The notes beneath the pieces were generated by a model that had not been told where the DNA came from, did no database searches, and saw nothing but the letters and a program-made list of their open reading frames with translations. Below are positions 4,702-45,691 of a DNA stretch of 64,000 bases, piece after piece. The position numbers were made by a program, and so were the translations under genes. Position 1 is the stretch's first letter, and each line of letters begins with the position of its first letter. This DNA is from Candidatus Tayloriibacteriota bacterium (GTDB lineage: Bacteria; Patescibacteriota; Minisyncoccia; Phycocordibacterales; SIBU01): assembly GCA_016188455.1 (NCBI GenBank), contig JACPHR010000018.1:5079-69078 (forward strand), written 5' to 3'.

Positions 4702-4771
4702 AGGATAGCTATTATACAGGGCTTCATCATGTCATTTTCAATCTCAAAAATCAAGAAAGCCTTGTTTGAAA

Positions 4772-5066
4772 TGAATTACGAAACTCCCTGAGGCACCTCT
4801 CCGAAAGGGGTGAGACGTGCAGGGAGCACGTCGCAAGACCTTGAGTACTCCGTCTTCGGAGAGCGAAAGGTGTACAGTTCCTGTAGGGAATAGGAGCGGC
4901 CGGCGCCGCAACTTCAGCCCAGCACCATTTTTACCGAATAAATGACGATTGACTTGTTTGGGTTCTAAGAGTAAAAACTTTTTTAATGAATTACAGATTG
5001 CTCTGTGAAAATGGTGCTGGGCGTACCCTTCCCCACAGGTGCCGAGGGAAGGAGTTTCATAATTCA
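4772..5066. mobile_element. Family-A palindromic MITE-like element, long variant with a nested family-C element (4918-5021)
   Basis: Ends tgaattacgaaactcc / ggagtttcataattca. The inner inverted repeat is cccagcaccattttt...aaaatggtgctggg; further nested stems are present. Confidence 0.5.
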
Positions 5067-5109
5067 AATAGCATTGCGCTAGGGGATTTTTTTATCTATC
5101 ATTACCGCT

Positions 5110-7610: not shown

Positions 7611-9815
7611 TTAAAGGTGGCTGCCCCCCTTTTCTTTTTTGTCAAACAAAGACAGGCCTCCGAGCTGAAGCCAGATAGATGCGATAATCAGCAGTTCCGA
7701 GAAAGTGTACTTGGAGGAATCCAACATTTTGCAGCCCCAGGACGGCGAGGCGAAATCCCGCCAGCCCAAATACATGCAATCGGGCACGAAAGCTAAGATT
7801 AGAGCGACCACGAGCATAAACCACGGAATAGGGTGCATTTTGTCGCTTGACCAAGGGTGGCGGCCGACGGCTAAAGCCGCGAGCGGTATGAGCCAGATAG
7901 TGTTCATGACCCAGGTTAAAGGACCGAGCAAAAGCAAAACCATCAGCACGGCGTACCAATACAAAAACTCCTGCTCCGGCGAAAACTGGGGAGTTTTCAT
8001 TCTGATTTTTTTCAAGCCCAAGAAAGCCAACGGCAGAAAAAACGCCAAGAGGAGAAAAGAAATGAGCGAGGCGGAAATTTGCCAGTTCTTATTTATGTCT
8101 TGCAGTCGCAAGACGATAAAGCGGGAAAGCGAGGCGTTGGGAGAGAAAGAAATTTTAACGTCTTTAAACCAATGCCCGTCTTTGGCAAAGCCGTCTGGGT
8201 GGCCCAGGCCGTACTCACTGTAGTATTTTGCGAAATAACTCTCCGGCAATTTGGCCTCCGCCGGCCCGTTTTCACTGCCATTTTGCACAAAGCGAGGCAG
8301 TTCTTTTGTTAAATAATTTCCTAAGATATTGGGTCCGAGGAACAGTACGGTCAAAACAACGATAGTCGCTCCGCCGAGGAGGTATCCCGCGAGCATTTTC
8401 CACTGTTTCCTTAGAATGAAAAACAAAACCACCAAACCGATATGCAACTTAATCAGGGTGGCGAACGCCCAAAAAAATCCCGAAGCCATTTCGCGGCGGC
8501 TGCCGCTTGAGGCTAGACTGATGGCCGTTAGGGCCAAAAGGAGAGTGAGAGCGTCTATTTGGCCGAGGGCGATAAAGGTTAGCAGGGGGAAAAACAAAGA
8601 AGCGTAAATACCCACCGCCGCGCACTGCCAAAAACGGAGCTTCAGTTTTAAGGCGCGAATAGTAATAAAAATTGACGCCAATAAGCAGGCCAAAGAAAAA
8701 TAAAGCCAAAAAAATTTGGCTGTGCCGTAGGTCATCATGTTTGCCATCAGTTCGAAAGGCACGGCCACCAAGGGCGGATAGATAAAACGGCTGTAGGTGT
8801 AAATGGCGTTCCCGTCCCAAATGGGCGGCTCTCTTACTATGCCGTTTTGGTAAATCGGAAAACCGGCGTTTAAGCTTTGGCCGGCCGTGTAATAAACCGA
8901 GAAGTCTCTTTGGACGCCGTCTTGGCCGAAACGATTGATGTTGCCGTAGAGTCTTATGAGGGAAAATAAGAGGAGCGCGCTCAAACCGCTTGCCGCTATG
9001 ATTTTAAATAAAGATCGCCCTCGCAGGGTATTATTCGCATGAGCGGCATTCGTAGCGCCGCCATCCCCGCTTTTTCGGAAAAGCGGGAGATGTCTTAAGA
9101 AAGTTTTAATGATAAATCTGAGATACCTAAAGCCTTCTCTGGATATTTTCAACTTCGTGGCGCCGTAAATCCTTTCCCCGTATTCAATGGGAATTTCCAT
9201 TATTCTGGCGCCGTTTTCTTTGGCGTAAAACGAAAATTCTATCAAAAAAGTGTTGCCTTTCGTTTTCAGTTTATCTTTGATGGCGTTAAAAACCTTCTTT
9301 TTGAAAAGCCGAAACCCGCTTGAAGTGTCGTAGACGGTAAGTCCCGTTGCCAGGCGCGTTATAAACTGGCTTATAATGCTCAGGAGAACCGGAAAAACCG
9401 GTTTGCCTTTCATCATACTGAACCTGTTATTTACGTATCTTGAGCCTATCACCATGTCAAAATCTTTCATTTTCTTAAGCATCACCGGCAACAATTCGGG
9501 CTCGTAGCAAAGGTCCGCGTCAATGGACGCGACATATTTTTTGCTTGCGGCCTCAAAGCCTTCAAACCAGGCGCCGGCAAGGCTCGGAGGGGGGTCTCTA
9601 AAAATGACTTTCAGTTCCGGAATCAATTTTACTTGCTCGCTGAGATATTCAAAGGAGCCGTCCCCGCTCCGGTCGTCAACCACTATTATTTCCCCGTCCA
9701 GTTGATTTTTTCTGAAGACGGCGAGGATTTTAGGAATCAGTATTTGCAGATTCTTTTTCTCGTTGTAAGTAGGGATTACAACAGATAGTTCTTTTTCCAT
9801 AGTTTTAAACGGCAT
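7611..9815 (-). CDS. Fusion protein: N-terminal GT2 (Dpm1-like) domain plus C-terminal polytopic membrane domain
   Basis: N-terminus LSVVIPTYNEKKNL...IIVVDDRSGDGS (GT2). Residues from about 270 onward are highly hydrophobic multi-pass, resembling DUF2029/GT87-like membrane transferases. Confidence 0.6.
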   Translation of the reverse strand: MPFKTMEKELSVVIPTYNEKKNLQILIPKILAVFRKNQLDGEIIVVDDRSGDGSFEYLSEQVKLIPELKVIFRDPPPSLAGAWFEGFEAASKKYVASIDADLCYEPELLPVMLKKMKDFDMVIGSRYVNNRFSMMKGKPVFPVLLSIISQFITRLATGLTVYDTSSGFRLFKKKVFNAIKDKLKTKGNTFLIEFSFYAKENGARIMEIPIEYGERIYGATKLKISREGFRYLRFIIKTFLRHLPLFRKSGDGGATNAAHANNTLRGRSLFKIIAASGLSALLLFSLIRLYGNINRFGQDGVQRDFSVYYTAGQSLNAGFPIYQNGIVREPPIWDGNAIYTYSRFIYPPLVAVPFELMANMMTYGTAKFFWLYFSLACLLASIFITIRALKLKLRFWQCAAVGIYASLFFPLLTFIALGQIDALTLLLALTAISLASSGSRREMASGFFWAFATLIKLHIGLVVLFFILRKQWKMLAGYLLGGATIVVLTVLFLGPNILGNYLTKELPRFVQNGSENGPAEAKLPESYFAKYYSEYGLGHPDGFAKDGHWFKDVKISFSPNASLSRFIVLRLQDINKNWQISASLISFLLLAFFLPLAFLGLKKIRMKTPQFSPEQEFLYWYAVLMVLLLLGPLTWVMNTIWLIPLAALAVGRHPWSSDKMHPIPWFMLVVALILAFVPDCMYLGWRDFASPSWGCKMLDSSKYTFSELLIIASIWLQLGGLSLFDKKEKGGSHL

Positions 9816-9917
9816 GTTCTTCGTAGGATTTATATTGAAGATTATACCTTACATCATAAATAAAATATCTTCAAATAAGTGTGCTAGACGAGCACATCGG
9901 TGACAGTCCTATTCTTA

Positions 9918-9990
9918 CCTTGAATTACGAAACTCGGTTTCCGCGAAGAGAACTTCATCCCGCGCGCCTTGTCCGGACTGAGGCAAGCCC
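9918..9990. mobile_element. Truncated family-A element (left half only)
   Basis: ccttgaattacgaaactcggtttccgcgaagagaacttcatcccgcgcgccttgtccggac is the reverse complement of the right half of the nadE-internal copy. No matching right end is present. Confidence 0.4.
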
Positions 9991-10091
9991 CCGCACCAAT
10001 TTCACCAAAGATGCGCGAGGGGTTTTGACGAGAGAGGCGGGGATGGACACGCGACAATGCGCGGTATTATGACCCACAGAGAGGGCAGTTC

Positions 10092-17275: not shown

Positions 17276-17284
17276 AAGCTATTG

Positions 17285-17393
17285 TGAATTACGAAACTGG
17301 CGTGCTTCAAGAAACCCCTCCCGCTTGCCCCCCGTAAGGCCTTGAGCGCGCGGGAGGGGTTTCTTTTCGCACTAAGCAAGCCCTCGTAATTCA
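17285..17393. mobile_element. Family-A palindromic MITE-like element
   Basis: tgaattacgaaactgg...ccctcgtaattca ends; inner stem gaaacccctcccgc/gcgggaggggtttc. Fills the intercistronic gap between two minus-strand genes. Confidence 0.55.
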
Positions 17394-17401
17394 TAGTAAG
17401 T

Positions 17402-19109: not shown

Positions 19110-19127
19110 GAATTTGGTGTGAATGGC

Positions 19128-19225
19128 GAAGTTCGCTTTCGGCGCAGAGAAACCCCTCCCGCGCGCCTTGGCTGGACTCTAGGCAAGCGGGAGGGGTTTC
19201 TTGAAGCGCGAGCTTCGCCATTCAC
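19128..19225. mobile_element. Diverged family-A element
   Basis: gtgaatggcgaagttcgc...gcgagcttcgccattcac ends (12/16 identity with the canonical TGAATTACGAAACTCG). Same internal gaaacccctcccgcgcgccttg...caagcgggaggggtttc core. Confidence 0.45.
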
Positions 19226-19253
19226 GGAAATTTAATGACAGATTTTCTCACAG

Positions 19254-29602: not shown

Positions 29603-29710
29603 CCTTGAATTACAAAACTCATTGCTCCAAGAAACCTCTCCCGCTTGCCTAACTCCGGACAAGGCGCGCGGGAGGGGTTTCTCTCCGCGGATAATGAGTT
29701 TCGTAATTCA
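29603..29710. mobile_element. Family-A palindromic MITE-like element
   Basis: ccttgaattacaaaactcat...atgagtttcgtaattca perfect ends. Core ccggacaaggcgcgcgggaggggtttc. Ends 7 nt before the next ATG. Confidence 0.55.
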
Positions 29711-29717
29711 CAGTAAT

Positions 29718-31627: not shown

Positions 31628-31673
31628 TCCTTCCGCCTCTCAGGATACTCTGGATACTCTGAAAATCTCCTTG

Positions 31674-31709
31674 TTACCTAACTCAAGCGTACGCTTGAGT
31701 TAGGTAACA
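31674..31709. repeat. Perfect 36-bp palindrome (copy 1 of 2)
   Basis: gttacctaactcaagcgtacgcttgagttaggtaac. Identical 41-mer context at 43032-43072. Confidence 0.6.
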
Positions 31710-31784
31710 TAGGTGACAGGTGACCGGTGACAGATGTTTTCGCGACACAGTCAGTGTTTATGATTGACGGCTTTGTTGGTATAT

Positions 31785-39862: not shown

Positions 39863-39974
39863 TAAAGAAATAATCACCACATGGTCGCATATTCATCGGC
39901 AAAAATCAATCAACTACCGCGCAGCAAACTGACTAGGTATACCGAGTCAGACTTGCTGGCAGTGCGGTAGTTGA

Positions 39975-40076
39975 CCCAGCACCATTTTCACCGATATGCC
40001 GCTTGTGATATATGAAAATCTTTCCCCAATCATGTATAACAGTTAGAAACGAGCATTCTGTAAAAATGGTGCTGGG
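39975..40076. repeat. Family-C palindromic element
   Basis: cccagcaccattttcacc...ctgtaaaaatggtgctggg; same ends as 4918-5021. Confidence 0.5.
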
Positions 40077-40160
40077 TTGATTATCCGCAAGCCACCTCAA
40101 AAATTTCCGGTGGGCGGATAATAAAAAATTGAAAAATCCAAACCGTTTGCTATGATTGCT

Positions 40161-40267
40161 TTGAATTACGAAACTCGTTTTTTGCGGAGAGAAACCTCTC
40201 CCGCGCGCCTTGTCCGGACGGGAGGCAAGCGGGAGGGGTTTCTCGAAGCAAGAGTTTCGTAATTCAA
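40161..40267. mobile_element. Family-A palindromic MITE-like element
   Basis: ttgaattacgaaactc...gagtttcgtaattcaa perfect 16-bp ends. Core ccttgtccggacgggaggcaagcgggaggggtttc. Lies 27 nt upstream of the nadE start. Confidence 0.55.
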
Positions 40268-40293
40268 GACATGATTACACCCATTACGTTTCT

Positions 40294-42105
40294 ATGCGTA
40301 TAGCCATACTACAACTCAATTACACAGTCGGAGATTTTGAAGGAAACGCGGCCAAGATTCTTCAAGGCTATCGTCGCGCCCGCAAAGAAGGGGCGGAGGT
40401 AGTGCTCGGGACGGAGCTCTCGCTCTTCGGCTACCCGCCGCTTGACCTGTTGGAACGCGCTGACTATATTGCGAAACAGTACGATGAATTAAAAAAATTG
40501 ACCGCCAAAATCGGCGGCGTCCCTCTGGTCATAGGCGTTGCCGAGAAAAACGAAAACAAAAAAGGCAAACCGCTTTTTAACAGCGCGGTTGTTATTCACA
40601 ACGGGCGGATTGTTCACCGCGCGCGCAAGACACTGCTTCCCACCTATGATGTCTTTGACGAGTCGCGTTATTTTGAAGCCAACGACGGGCCGGTTCGGCC
40701 TTGGGTATACAAAGGCAAAAAAATCCTTATACTGCTCTGTGAAGATATTTGGAACGGGTCCGAGAACGCCGACAATAAACTCTACCATACCTTGAATTAC
40801 GAAACTGGCGCTTCGAGAACTTCTTCCCGCCCGCCTGCCAGCGCCGGAGCCGCAGGCTATGGCGGGCAGGCTTGCTTCCCGTCCGGACAAGGCGCGCGGG
40901 ATGAAGTTCTCTTAGCGGAAACCGAGTTTCGTAATTCAAGGTACCACAAGGACCCGCTTATAGAAGCCAAGGCGCTTTCTCCCGATTTGGTATTGGTCAT
41001 CAACGGCTCGCCCTATTTTTGGGGCAAGGGAGACGGGCGGCTGTCGCTTGTCTCGGGCATCGGCCGGCGCTTGCGCTGCCCGATATTTTACGCCAATCAA
41101 GTGGGCGGCAATACGGACCTGGTTTTTGACGGGCGAAGTTTCGCGGTGGACGGAAATGGCAGATGCATCGGAGCCGCCAAACCGTTCGCCGAGGATGTCT
41201 TGATGGTTGATACCAAAACAGCCAAAGCGGTTGCATATTCCTCCGATGCTGGCAAACCGGAAGAACTTTACAACGCGCTTGTCTGCGGGGTCCGTGACTA
41301 CTTGAGGAAAATCAAAAACACCAAAGGAGTGGTGGTGGGGCTTTCGGGCGGCGTTGATTCGGCGCTGGTCGCTACCATCGCCGTGGACGCGCTCGGTGCG
41401 GACAAAGTGCGCGGCATTGCTATGCCCTCGACCTTCTCCTCCGATGAGAGTGTCATTGACGCCAAGACCCTGGCGGAAAATCTTGGCATTCAATTTGACG
41501 TTGTTCCCATTAAAAAAGCCTACGGCTCTTTCGGAGAAATACTCGGGCCGGTCATTGGCTGGGAAAAGCCGCTTGCCTTGGCCGAAGAGAATGTGCAAGC
41601 GCGCGTTCGGGGCCTGATTTTGATGGCCATTTCAAATCGCGAGGGCAATATTGTGCTCACCACCGGAAACAAATCGGAGATTGCGGTGGGCTACTGCACG
41701 CTCTACGGGGACATGGCCGGGGGCTACGCCGTGATTTCGGACATTCCCAAGACGGTTGTCTACAGCTTGGCGGAATACCGGAACGCTAAAGCCAAGAAAG
41801 ACATCATTCCGCGCCGCAGCCTTGAAAAGGCGCCGTCCGCCGAGCTTCGGCCAAACCAGAAGGACCAGGACACCTTGCCGCCTTATGACGTGCTTGACGA
41901 TATTTTAGAGCAGTATGTTGAAGAGCAGAAAGGTCTAGCTGATATTGTTAAATCGGGGCACAATCCAAAAACGGTGGAGTGGGTAATCCAGACGATTGAC
42001 AGGAACGAGTATAAACGTCGGCAGATGCCGCCCGGGCCGAAGGTCACGGGCAAAGCCTTCGGCAGCGGCCGGCGGATTCCCATCGCGGCCAAGTTTATCC
42101 TGTAG
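40294..42105 (+). CDS. nadE: Glutamine-dependent NAD+ synthetase carrying an in-frame repeat-element insertion
   Basis: N-terminal CN-hydrolase domain (...ILILLCEDIW...) plus C-terminal NAD synthetase (VVGLSGGVDSALVA, ...SDE..., ...GYCTLYGDM...). Start refined to MRIAILQL. Confidence 0.8.
   Translation: MRIAILQLNYTVGDFEGNAAKILQGYRRARKEGAEVVLGTELSLFGYPPLDLLERADYIAKQYDELKKLTAKIGGVPLVIGVAEKNENKKGKPLFNSAVVIHNGRIVHRARKTLLPTYDVFDESRYFEANDGPVRPWVYKGKKILILLCEDIWNGSENADNKLYHTLNYETGASRTSSRPPASAGAAGYGGQACFPSGQGARDEVLLAETEFRNSRYHKDPLIEAKALSPDLVLVINGSPYFWGKGDGRLSLVSGIGRRLRCPIFYANQVGGNTDLVFDGRSFAVDGNGRCIGAAKPFAEDVLMVDTKTAKAVAYSSDAGKPEELYNALVCGVRDYLRKIKNTKGVVVGLSGGVDSALVATIAVDALGADKVRGIAMPSTFSSDESVIDAKTLAENLGIQFDVVPIKKAYGSFGEILGPVIGWEKPLALAEENVQARVRGLILMAISNREGNIVLTTGNKSEIAVGYCTLYGDMAGGYAVISDIPKTVVYSLAEYRNAKAKKDIIPRRSLEKAPSAELRPNQKDQDTLPPYDVLDDILEQYVEEQKGLADIVKSGHNPKTVEWVIQTIDRNEYKRRQMPPGPKVTGKAFGSGRRIPIAAKFIL
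40789..40940. mobile_element. Family-A palindromic element inserted in frame within nadE
   Basis: Perfect 18-bp ends ccttgaattacgaaactc / gagtttcgtaattcaagg. Encodes ...TLNYETGASRTSSRPPASAGAAGYGGQACFPSGQGARDEVLLAETEFRNSRY... without interrupting the frame. Confidence 0.6.
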
Positions 42106-42134
42106 ACTTTTTCCCGTTTCGAATTAAATCAATT

Positions 42135-42917
42135 ATGAATGAGCTGATGTATAAGGTAAAAAGAAAACTCTTACACCTCATTGGCAGTGGATGGGGTTAC
42201 TCTGGCGACTATCAAAACTGGAACCACCCTACATTTACCAGATATGATGATCCGATTATTTTTCAAAGAACACAAAAAGCTTTTGAAATGGTTAAGGCCA
42301 ACAATGCGTTATATGTTCGAGACAGCACACCGGTAAGGACTAGAGAGTATAACACCACTCTCACCAACATCTTAGATAGAATCTCAAGAGAGAGAGAGAG
42401 AGAGAGGATTGTCCTGCTAGATTTTGGAGGAGGAATGGGAACTGCGTACTTTCAAAACAAAGAACGGCTACCTTTAATGGATTGGAATATTGTTGAGCAG
42501 AAGAACCTGATTGATTACATGACAAAGGAGATACCTTACAGGTTTGGCTTGTTTACTGACACACAGGATTGTATTTACCAAAAGGATCCTGATGTCGCAT
42601 TATTTTCTGGTTCTCTGCAGTACATTGAACATCCTTATAAAATTCTGGGTTTAGTTGCCAAAACGGTTGATTATATTATTTTTGATCATACGACATTCAT
42701 TGACGCAGAAAAGGATCGTCTTACTCGACAAATCATCAATCCAAAAATCTACCCGGCACGCTTTCCTTGTTGGTTTTTTAGCGAAAACAAGATCAAGAAT
42801 TTTTTATCGCAATATGGCTTTCGATTTGAATCAGAATCTGATACAAAATCCATCAAATTAAAGGGAGTACAAGCCGCTTATAAAGATATGTTTTTTATAA
42901 AAACTCGAGTAAAATAA
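42135..42917 (+). CDS. Putative SAM-dependent methyltransferase on a low-GC cassette
   Basis: LLDFGGGMGTAYF (motif I-like). Markedly AT-rich relative to nadE. Flanked by an identical 29-mer at 42079-42107 and 42948-42976. Confidence 0.45.
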   Translation: MNELMYKVKRKLLHLIGSGWGYSGDYQNWNHPTFTRYDDPIIFQRTQKAFEMVKANNALYVRDSTPVRTREYNTTLTNILDRISRERERERIVLLDFGGGMGTAYFQNKERLPLMDWNIVEQKNLIDYMTKEIPYRFGLFTDTQDCIYQKDPDVALFSGSLQYIEHPYKILGLVAKTVDYIIFDHTTFIDAEKDRLTRQIINPKIYPARFPCWFFSENKIKNFLSQYGFRFESESDTKSIKLKGVQAAYKDMFFIKTRVK

Positions 42918-42947
42918 AAACAGCGTCATTTGTGTGATTTTTCAGCT

Positions 42948-42976
42948 CCCATCGCGGCCAAGTTTATCCTGTAGAC
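42948..42976. repeat. 29-bp direct repeat of the nadE 3' end (second copy)
   Basis: cccatcgcggccaagtttatcctgtagac identical to 42079-42107. Confidence 0.7.
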
Positions 42977-43031
42977 CTTATTATCTGCCCGCAGAATATC
43001 CAGCACTTGCTTTATCTTAATCTTACCTAAT

Positions 43032-43067
43032 GTTACCTAACTCAAGCGTACGCTTGAGTTAGGTAAC
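43032..43067. repeat. Perfect 36-bp palindrome (copy 2 of 2)
   Basis: gttacctaactcaagcgtacgcttgagttaggtaac; identical to 31674-31709. Confidence 0.6.
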
Positions 43068-43218
43068 ATAGGGCAATCGTTATTCGGTAAAAATGGCGTT
43101 GAGTCAACCTACCTAGCGGTGTGATTTTTCTCTAGTGAATGGGGTTATAGAAGCCGATTGAAAAGGCCGCCAGTGTTTGCTATGATTACGCGCACTGTCG
43201 CATTGAGTCACATAATAA

Positions 43219-44469
43219 ATGTCTCTAATTACGATGAAGGTTACTAAGACTAAAACAAAAAAAAATATCCGGGTACCCTATCTTTTGACCGTTTACGGCA
43301 AGGAGGAGATAAAGGCGGTCAATGAAGTTTTGAAAGACCCGACCAAAATCTCAAGCGGGCCAAGGGTGCGCGAATTTGAACAAAAAATCGCGGGGATGTT
43401 CGGCAAAAAATTCGGCGTCATGGTCAATTCCGGTTCCTCGGCCAACCTTTTGGCCGTGGACGCGCTTAACATGCCCAAAGGTAGCGAAGTCATCACCCCA
43501 ATTCTCACTTTTGCCACTACCGTCTCGCCCATCGTGCAGAGGGATTTAGTGCCGGCTTTTGCGGATGTAGAAGAGGGAACTTACCAGATTAATATAAACC
43601 AGATTGGCAGTTTGCTTTCCAAAAAGACCAAGGCGCTCATGATCCCGTCTCTCATTGGCAATATGGCCGACCTTTCTAAACTGAAAGCTTTCGCGAAGAA
43701 ACACAAGCTTTGGTTCATTGAAGATTCCTGCGATGTGCTGGGCGCCAAATTTGCCGGCCGGCCGACCGGAAGCTATTCGGATGTTTCCACCACCAGCTTC
43801 TACGCCGCCCACGTTATCACCACCGCGGGCGCGGGCGGCGTGGTGGCCTTTCACGACGGCGCGCTGGCCAAGCGGGCCCTTATCAAAGCCAACTGGGGGA
43901 GGGAGTCAACGCTTTTTGGTTTTTACGAAAAATCGGAAGAGCTAAAGAAACGTTTCGCCGGCGCACTCGGGGGCATGCCGTATGACGCCAAATTTATTTT
44001 CAGCGAACTGGGCTACAATTTTCAGTCAACGGAAATCAACGCCGCTTTCGGTTTGGAGCAACTCAAACGATTCCCGAAATTTGTCGCCCGCCGCAAACAA
44101 AACGCGGCGGCGCTCTTAAAATTTTTCAAACGCTATGAAGCCTTTTTCATTTTGCCGGTAGAACACCCCAAAGCAGAAACTTTCTGGCACGCTTTTCCGC
44201 TCACTATCAGAAAAGGCGCCCCATTCACCCGTCTTGAGATTACGAAATATCTTGAGGAAAGAAATATTCAAACCAGGCCGATTTTTACGGGCAACATTTT
44301 GAGGCAGCCGGCCTTCCGCCATATAAAAGCCAAGACGTTAAAAGAGGGCTATCCCGTGGCCGACCATATTATGCGCAACGGGTTTCTGATAGGGTGCAAT
44401 CATGGATTGGGAGAAAAACATATTGCCCATCTGTTCGATTCTTTTGAGCAGTTTCTCAAGAACAAATAA
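43219..44469 (+). CDS. DegT/RfbH-family PLP-dependent enzyme (CDP-6-deoxy-hexulose 3-dehydrase / sugar aminotransferase-like)
   Basis: About 416 aa with ...VNSGSSANLLAV... and ...DSCDVLGAKF... (Lys region); the length fits RfbH/DdhC-type. Confidence 0.6.
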   Translation: MSLITMKVTKTKTKKNIRVPYLLTVYGKEEIKAVNEVLKDPTKISSGPRVREFEQKIAGMFGKKFGVMVNSGSSANLLAVDALNMPKGSEVITPILTFATTVSPIVQRDLVPAFADVEEGTYQININQIGSLLSKKTKALMIPSLIGNMADLSKLKAFAKKHKLWFIEDSCDVLGAKFAGRPTGSYSDVSTTSFYAAHVITTAGAGGVVAFHDGALAKRALIKANWGRESTLFGFYEKSEELKKRFAGALGGMPYDAKFIFSELGYNFQSTEINAAFGLEQLKRFPKFVARRKQNAAALLKFFKRYEAFFILPVEHPKAETFWHAFPLTIRKGAPFTRLEITKYLEERNIQTRPIFTGNILRQPAFRHIKAKTLKEGYPVADHIMRNGFLIGCNHGLGEKHIAHLFDSFEQFLKNK

Positions 44470-45471: not shown

Positions 45472-45691
45472 TATTGAATTACAAAACTCTTGCCAAGAGA
45501 TTCCCTTTCCACAAGCCTCGGCTCCGGACAAGGCGCGTGGAAGCGGAAAAGGTCTCTTTCCGCGAACAATCCGCATCTTTTAAGGGTATCACCGATACCC
45601 AGAAATGGCTTTTAGCCGCTATCGCGGCTAAAAGCCATTGTTGAACATTTTATGTAGCGGGAGGTGACTGAAAAAGAATTTCGTAACTTAG
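45472..45691. mobile_element. Family-A-related composite element (diverged ends, extra internal hairpins) flanked by a 10-bp direct repeat AGTTTCTTAA
   Basis: ttgaattacaaaactcttgcc...agaatttcgtaactta. Core ccggacaaggcgcgtggaagcgg. Internal 15-bp perfect stem atggcttttagccgc/gcggctaaaagccat. Direct repeats at 45462-45471 and 45692-45701. Confidence 0.45.

Follow-up and report, generated by a model that had tools for sequence, protein, structure and literature searches.

Evidence for an In-Frame Insertion of a Miniature Transposable Element in the Glutaminase Domain of NAD+ Synthetase from a Candidatus Taylorbacteria Bacterium

The nadE gene of an uncultured Candidatus Taylorbacteria bacterium, which encodes a glutamine-dependent NAD+ synthetase, contains a 152-bp palindromic element that was almost certainly inserted in frame as a MITE (miniature inverted-repeat transposable element) within the region encoding the glutaminase domain. 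The gene lies in a 64,000-nt stretch of contig JACPHR010000018.1, which was analyzed as a whole and is referred to here as the window. Together with a 7-bp target-site duplication, the element adds 159 nt (152 + 7), i.e., 53 stop-free codons, to the gene. The reading that we favor, at a probability of roughly 60%, is that these codons are translated and that the protein tolerates the additional residues as a disordered loop, in which case the enzyme would presumably remain active. The insertion represents a clean, datable case of selfish DNA adding 53 residues to the catalytic domain of a conserved enzyme, in a host phylum, the Patescibacteria (candidate phyla radiation, CPR), that has small genomes. 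The terminal sequences of the element also led to a more unexpected, incidental result: across Patescibacteria, there is a superfamily of MITEs that have conserved termini and duplicate 7 bp, and no description of it was found in a literature search.

The nadE Gene and Its Product

The nadE reading frame begins at 40294, which is the true start (MRIAILQL, matching the orthologues), ends at 42105, and is open over 603 codons without frameshift or stop. Its product (P0001) has the same sequence as NCBI MBI2476211.1, annotated as “NAD+ synthase [Candidatus Taylorbacteria bacterium],” which is encoded on one contig only (90.7 kb). Among solved structures, the glutamine-dependent NAD+ synthetases 4F4H and 5KHA are closest to it. 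Pfam recognizes both domains of such an enzyme: NAD_synthase (PF02540) at residues 326-577, and CN_hydrolase (PF00795) in two stretches, with residues 2-155 corresponding to profile positions 1-155 of 256. The protein also has the Glu-Lys-Cys triad and the SGGxDS motif of ATP-pyrophosphatases, and it retains 75 of the 75 invariant columns in an alignment of 118 homologues, including S351-G352-G353-x-D355-S356 as well as E41, K112, and C149, which by homology would form the triad of the nitrilase superfamily. C149 is the catalytic cysteine of the LLCEDIW motif. Among the three orthologues from the window and from two related loci (L001 and L002), the ratio of non-synonymous to synonymous substitution rates (dN/dS) is 0.08-0.11, and the branch of the window gene is not elevated (dN 0.043, dS 0.455). 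Judged from these sequence comparisons, purifying selection on nadE is strong within the clade.

The Inserted Element and Its Target-Site Duplication

The inserted element was first noticed in a reading of the window that was made without database searches (hereafter, the sequence-only reading). Its length of 152 bp holds; the coordinates proposed for it, 40789-40940, were one base too far to the left (Table 1). The terminal inverted repeats likewise reproduce on re-inspection and are perfect, however over 17 nt instead of the 18 bp proposed: the 18th base of the left arm is a G, where pairing would need a C. With the adjoining TA of the target duplication included, the arms are complementary over 19 nt, and the inner arms (40809-40836 and 40890-40917) are 86% complementary. 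The hairpin that had been suspected for the RNA is indeed predicted, at -92.5 kcal/mol (z = -9.2).

The whole site (40783-40948) consists of TACCATA, CCTTGAATTACGAAACT…AGTTTCGTAATTCAAGG, and TACCACA. The two copies of the duplication differ at one base, a synonymous change (CAC->CAT, His) in the left copy. Related elements were collected in two ways: a metagenome scan for close relatives gave 15 loci (L003-L017), and a scan of one genome per species, which used the two 12-nt termini only, gave at least 118 stretches (L018-L135). If the element is taken to end 4 nt beyond the GAATT core, 55 of 161 copies have direct repeats of 7 bp without a mismatch, and at least six of the seven positions match in 75 of the 161; when the assumed end is shifted by one or two bases, only 0-2 copies match. 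The family also has a target preference of T-N5-A (T at position 1 in 80% and A at position 7 in 79%), and the duplication in nadE fits both the offset and this preference. The family-wide flanks ruled out two shorter readings of the duplication, namely TACCA (5 bp) and CCA (3 bp, with TA assigned to the repeats).

Small size, terminal inverted repeats, a duplication of fixed length, dispersed copies, and presence/absence polymorphism together identify the element as a MITE. The sequence-only reading had described it as MITE-like without noticing the 7-bp duplication, which further supports this identity along with empty sites in a syntenic relative. There is no transposase gene within the 152 bp, and the insert peptide contains no Pfam domain. 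Rfam returned no match at the gathering threshold and only chance-level matches at E up to 1; by Rfam and Pfam, the insert is thus not recognized as a self-splicing intron, an intein, or a known structured RNA.

Table 1. Coordinates of nadE, the inserted element, and further family copies in the window.
Feature	Position	Strand	Remarks
nadE, glutamine-dependent NAD+ synthetase	40294..42105	+	603 aa; N-terminal CN-hydrolase (glutaminase), C-terminal NAD synthase
MITE copy in nadE	40790..40941	+	152 bp; matches the family hidden Markov model (HMM); reads TLNYETGASRTSS...AETEFRNSR in the nadE frame
Left target-site duplication TACCATA	40783..40789	+	4 nt outside the GAATT core, as family-wide
Right target-site duplication TACCACA	40942..40948	+	ancestral Tyr-His codons and first base of the next Lys codon
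Left terminal inverted repeat CCTTGAATTACGAAACT	40790..40806	+	perfect, 17 nt
Right terminal inverted repeat AGTTTCGTAATTCAAGG	40925..40941	+	complement of the left arm
Extra internal hairpin, 41 nt	40829..40869	+	from the family alignment; boundaries uncertain by a few nt
Family copy in nadE leader	40159..40269	+	111 bp; directly after the -10-like TATGAT; flanking direct repeat ATGATT
Composite family copy	about 45472..45691	+	degenerate right end, extra internal hairpins; flanking direct repeat AGTTTCTTAA
Canonical intergenic family copy	29603..29713	-	
Intergenic family copy, one terminus diverged	17282..17399	-	
Diverged family copy	19116..19227	+	
Half copy	9916..9988	+	63 aligned nt, of which 62 agree with the corresponding end of the nadE copy
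Composite family copy, ~300 bp	about 4769..5069	+	nested element of the second repeat family

Absence of the Segment from Orthologues

The closest homologues of the nadE product, P0002 and P0003 (550-557 aa), align with it without gaps except for a single block of 53 residues, KL[YHTLNYETG…EFRNSR]YHKDPL. At the DNA level, the genes of the window, L001, and L002 are mutually 82-83% identical, and the window gene has exactly 159 nt more. At the empty site, L001 has AAACTT-TATCAC-AGA and L002 has AAACTC-TACGAC-AAA, and the positions matching the duplication are TATCACA and TACGACA, respectively; the empty site of the window gene, reconstructed in silico, contains AAACTCTACCACAAGGAC. The orthologues therefore show the clean indel (53 aa, 159 nt) that the sequence-only reading had predicted exactly at this site, with the frame preserved as claimed, while its estimate of about 50 added residues was slightly low. 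The segment between W153 and P221 comprises 67 residues in the nadE product vs. 12-21 in 117 other homologues (14-15 in 112 of them), and the same loop is about ten residues shorter still in 4F4H and 5KHA.

An exhaustive HMMER search (phmmer) of 1.84 billion cluster representatives found no peptide homologous to the insert: the sole match, P0121, belongs to an unrelated repeat protein, aligns over 35 residues at about 37% identity, and was judged to be due to chance. A word-index search with the 55-aa insert peptide returned no candidate, but it missed P0001 itself as well. Unrelated NadE proteins carrying the segment, which would have pointed to an ancestral feature of the enzyme, were looked for among the homologues and the cluster representatives, and none carries it. 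Since the segment is absent from both sister orthologues and from the 117 homologues, has no homologous peptide among the representatives searched, and is encoded by DNA that belongs to a repeat family, there is practically no chance that it is an ancestral part of NadE.

An error of metagenome assembly, by which a copy of the repeat was wrongly spliced into nadE, could in principle produce a similar picture: the genome is metagenome-assembled, the repeat is multicopy, and the protein is encoded on one contig only. However, a 7-bp duplication of the family type is in exact register at the two junctions, and the element contains a unique internal segment of 41 nt, of which no second copy was found in the window or in the 135 loci. 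An assembler error would yield neither a target-site duplication nor a preserved frame, and we consider this explanation very unlikely.

Preservation of the Reading Frame

The insert adds residues 164-216 to the nadE product, i.e., it follows C149 and lies in the catalytic domain just after LLCEDIW, as the sequence-only reading had placed it. Both the length and the phase of the element bear on the frame. The other complete copies in the window are 111 bp long, and a copy of this kind together with its duplication (111 + 7 = 118) would shift the frame; it is the unique 41-nt hairpin that brings element and duplication to a multiple of three. With respect to phase, a TGA in the termini of the element closes one phase and a TAA closes another, which leaves exactly one of the three without a stop, whichever way the element is oriented. 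The phase of nadE at the insertion point is this single stop-free phase.

Apart from the nadE copy (40829-40869), an extra small internal hairpin with GCCTGCC…GGCAGGC stems is present in L009 (~8600-8625). Both copies are longer than canonical ones, and the hairpins occupy different positions in the two elements. Its origin may lie in a secondary insertion of very small size or in a duplication of local sequence.

A Tolerated Loop or a Crippled Enzyme

The termini and the fixed duplication suggest that a DDE-type transposase, acting in trans with 7-bp staggered cuts, inserted the non-autonomous element at the target TACCACA in nadE and thereby duplicated 7 bp. Ribosomes would then read through the insert and extend NadE by 53 residues, which would probably form a disordered surface loop on an enzyme that still works, and the insertion would have persisted because, by chance, it left intact a gene on which purifying selection is strong. 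The structural context is compatible with such a scenario. The insert starts 15 residues after C149, between the short helix of C149 and the helix 221-228 that precedes core strand 232-236. The insertion site is the most length-variable loop of the CN-hydrolase domain, and the insertion point lies in a polar segment, NGSENADNKLY-HKD (the hyphen marks the point; the flank NGSENADNKLYHKD is polar as well). An AlphaFold2 model computed with the 118-sequence alignment has a mean predicted local distance difference test score (pLDDT) of 87.7 and a predicted template modeling score (pTM) of 0.89; pLDDT falls below 50 only for residues 161-215 and exceeds 90 for most of the remainder. The model that had been proposed as a check thus renders the insert as a low-confidence loop on an otherwise confident fold, which is consistent with a surface loop.

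Alternatively, the MITE insertion might have crippled nadE, in that the loop near the catalytic cysteine and/or the very stable mRNA hairpin eliminate activity or lower it strongly. This would make the gene a pseudogene-in-waiting of very recent origin, with a frame that is intact only by chance. We regard this as a serious, if somewhat unlikely, alternative, and several observations speak for it or against the favored reading. The loop is close to both the active-site cysteine and the helix before the next core strand, where interference is possible, and the insert divides the CN_hydrolase domain at ~155 of the 256 profile positions. Translation may be impeded by the mRNA hairpin (-92.5 kcal/mol). 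The confidence of AlphaFold2 outside the insert derives from the alignment and is no measure of how well the insert is tolerated. An open read-through has a chance of about one in three without selection and is unremarkable on its own. Moreover, the insert is young: its A-end is identical to the half copy at 9916 at 62 of 63 positions, and its terminal repeats are perfect, so that decay would not yet be visible. Both dN/dS and the conserved residues therefore mostly reflect the history before the insertion, and dN/dS was rejected as a test of constraint after it. The leader of the gene is affected as well: a promoter-like TTGAAA-16-TATGAT is conserved in L001 and L002, there about 20 nt from the start codon, and in the window a second MITE (40159-40269) directly follows this site and separates it from the nadE start codon, with further repeat insertions in the leader. 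The gene may thus be on its way to decay. Finally, no autonomous element, i.e., a pair of terminal inverted repeats enclosing a transposase-like open reading frame (ORF), which could have mobilized the nadE copy, was found in the window and the 135 loci (~1 Mb). Pairs of terminal inverted repeats 600-6000 bp apart were considered as an autonomous parent and rejected as chance half-matches around ordinary genes (e.g., L033 1613-3089).

On the other hand, a dN/dS of about 0.1 in the clade implies that loss of the enzyme should be costly, and the insertion is present in the assembled consensus. The sole substitution in the duplication is synonymous, all 603 codons are free of frameshifts and stops, and it is the most length-variable loop of the domain that hosts the insert. 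A tolerated loop and a recent inactivation of nadE were the two outcomes considered in the sequence-only reading; these are the right alternatives, and the data separate them incompletely. The nadE copy looks like a rare accident that has not been purged, and a comparison of nadE with and without the insert could serve as a gauge of the size of insertion that a loop of the nitrilase fold tolerates.

By analogy with bypass elements (T4 gene 60 and the mitochondrial byps of Magnusiomyces), the insert might also be present in the DNA and missing from the protein, either by ribosomal bypass of the 159 nt or by excision of the mRNA hairpin and rejoining, both of which would restore ancestral NadE. 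As in bypass elements, matching codons flank a structured insert, since the duplication puts identical TAC CA(T/C) codons on both sides of the predicted -92.5 kcal/mol hairpin. In contrast to bypass elements, nadE has a far longer gap and lacks a stop behind the take-off codon, and the nadE frame is open through the element, which bypassing does not require. Excision is not favored by Rfam, which gave no intron or ribozyme match. To our knowledge, the longest bypass described spans about one third of a 159-nt gap, and we know of no bacterial system that excises and rejoins mRNA in this way. A protein free of the insert therefore seems extremely unlikely; it would be recognizable by the peptide KLYHKDPLIEAK, which would span the site. 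If bypassing did occur, the insertion of a MITE with its duplication could be a general route to bypass elements in bacteria.

Comparison with Known Repeat Families

In-frame insertions of MITEs are documented for Rickettsia palindromic elements (RPEs), ERIC, BOX, and QMITE (PMC10969869, PMC5896051), and the insertion in nadE is a fresh example of this established phenomenon, to which Correia elements belong as well. RPEs (Ogata et al., 2000, 2002, as cited in PMC10969869) and the nadE element are both palindromic mobile repeats of ~100-150 bp that can insert in frame in the gene of a housekeeping enzyme, with a peptide that would be accommodated in a fold-compatible loop. The hosts differ (Rickettsia vs. 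Patescibacteria), and the two sets were compared by description, not by sequence. About half of the RPE copies lie within ORFs (PMC10969869), whereas the family of the nadE element is nearly all intergenic: one of the 183 copies examined (~1 Mb) is located mid-gene, namely the nadE copy, and the family is therefore not RPE-like in habit. Also in contrast to RPEs, the family has clear 7-bp target duplications, and a conserved element-encoded peptide of the RPE type was not found among the 1.84 billion representatives. The likeness to RPEs that the sequence-only reading had pointed out thus applies to the nadE copy and not to its family. ORFs spanning copies in L008, L004, and L132 were rejected as genic insertions, as they are spurious or antisense.

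Copies of ERIC, BOX, and Coxiella QMITE1/2 sometimes form in-frame fusions with ORFs of the host (PMC10969869; PMC5896051). Where QMITE copies have inserted in functional genes, they are found at 3′ ends (PMC5896051), whereas the nadE insert interrupts a catalytic domain midway and is 15 residues away from the nucleophile. The Correia elements of Neisseria (Correia repeat enclosed elements, CREE) resemble the nadE element as MITEs of ~100-150 bp with terminal inverted repeats, and both families are mostly intergenic with an occasional copy in coding sequence and form strong RNA hairpins. Correia elements are known only from Neisseria, have terminal inverted repeats of 26 bp with unrelated sequence, and duplicate a TA dinucleotide, whereas the nadE element has a 7-bp duplication and different termini.

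Family Copies in the Window

A 17-mer of the terminus occurs seven times in the window at up to two mismatches, compared to 0.01 expected from shuffles. BLAST and the family HMM detect eight copies in the 64 kb, including the one in nadE, which reproduces the seven further copies reported earlier. Three of the occupied sites are empty at syntenic sites in relatives: the copies in nadE and in its leader (40159-40269) are absent from L001 and L002, and the copy at ~45472-45691 is absent from L001, which has no family copy over 21.6 kb syntenic with the window.

In the leader of nadE, about 360 nt (39914-40272) are absent from L001 and L002; this stretch is made up of two small hairpins, one second-family element, and the copy of the first family at 40159-40269. 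The composite copy at ~45472-45691 contains non-canonical perfect hairpins, GGGTATCACCGATACCC and AATGGCTTTTAGCCGC…GCGGCTAAAAGCCATT, at 45560-45660.

A MITE Superfamily in Patescibacteria

The scan for termini revealed many copies in other genomes of Patescibacteria. Among the matches listed, the bins are labeled as Candidatus Campbell-, Doudna-, Uhr-, Jorgensen-, Ryan-, and Colwellbacteria, Saccharibacteria, Minisyncoccia, and other Patescibacteria. Across the 183 copies examined, the termini are conserved as YYKT-GAATTACGAAAC…GTTTCGTAATTC-AMRR, and the interiors are unrelated between lineages; canonical copies measure 110-134 bp. A scan of genomes with a pattern that combined the terminus with the interior GCGCCTTGTCCGGA gave no match, because this interior is lineage-specific. 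No superfamily copy was found in the viral contigs searched. A literature search did not find the terminal sequence in a relevant context, nor a description of MITEs in Patescibacteria. Identical termini of 12-16 nt on unrelated interiors might mark a transposase that is shared across the superphylum and belongs to an undescribed group of insertion sequences, which we consider about as probable as its opposite. The termini and the 7-bp duplication offer a handle on this transposase and on horizontal exchange among Patescibacteria, which may matter more than the insertion in nadE.

Some copies are located on contigs that were binned as Pacearchaeota, Nanoarchaeota, and Gammaproteobacteria (L066, L071, L089, and L090). 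The neighboring genes look bacterial by eye (bacterial-type GAPDH, RsmA, ComM/YifB-like, and Mur ligase-like), and mis-binning seems more likely than spread across domains. The length of the element plus the 7-bp duplication is divisible by three in 85 of 165 copies (52% vs. 33% expected), an excess that is possibly meaningless, as copies of the same lineage share a modal length and are not independent.

Other Repeats and Segments in the Window

The window also contains a second family that is MITE-like, with elements of ~100 bp and the termini CCAGCACCATTTTYACMG, for which six terminus matches compare to 0.22 expected. Its elements are found at 4919-5020, nested in the first-family copy at ~4769-5069, and at 39976-40075 in the nadE leader, and a half terminus at 9990-10007 adjoins the truncated copy of the first family (9916-9988). 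An unrelated palindromic repeat, the third kind noted and ~36-42 bp long, occurs in the window at 31673-31714 and 43032-43067 and in L002 at 1929-1970 (95-100% identity). Between nadE and a DegT-like gene, a segment of ~1.1 kb (42124-43256) is absent from L001; it holds an ORF of 260 aa (42135-42917), for which only a weak, sub-threshold match to Methyltransf_23 was obtained, and it ends near the 36-bp palindrome at 43032-43067.

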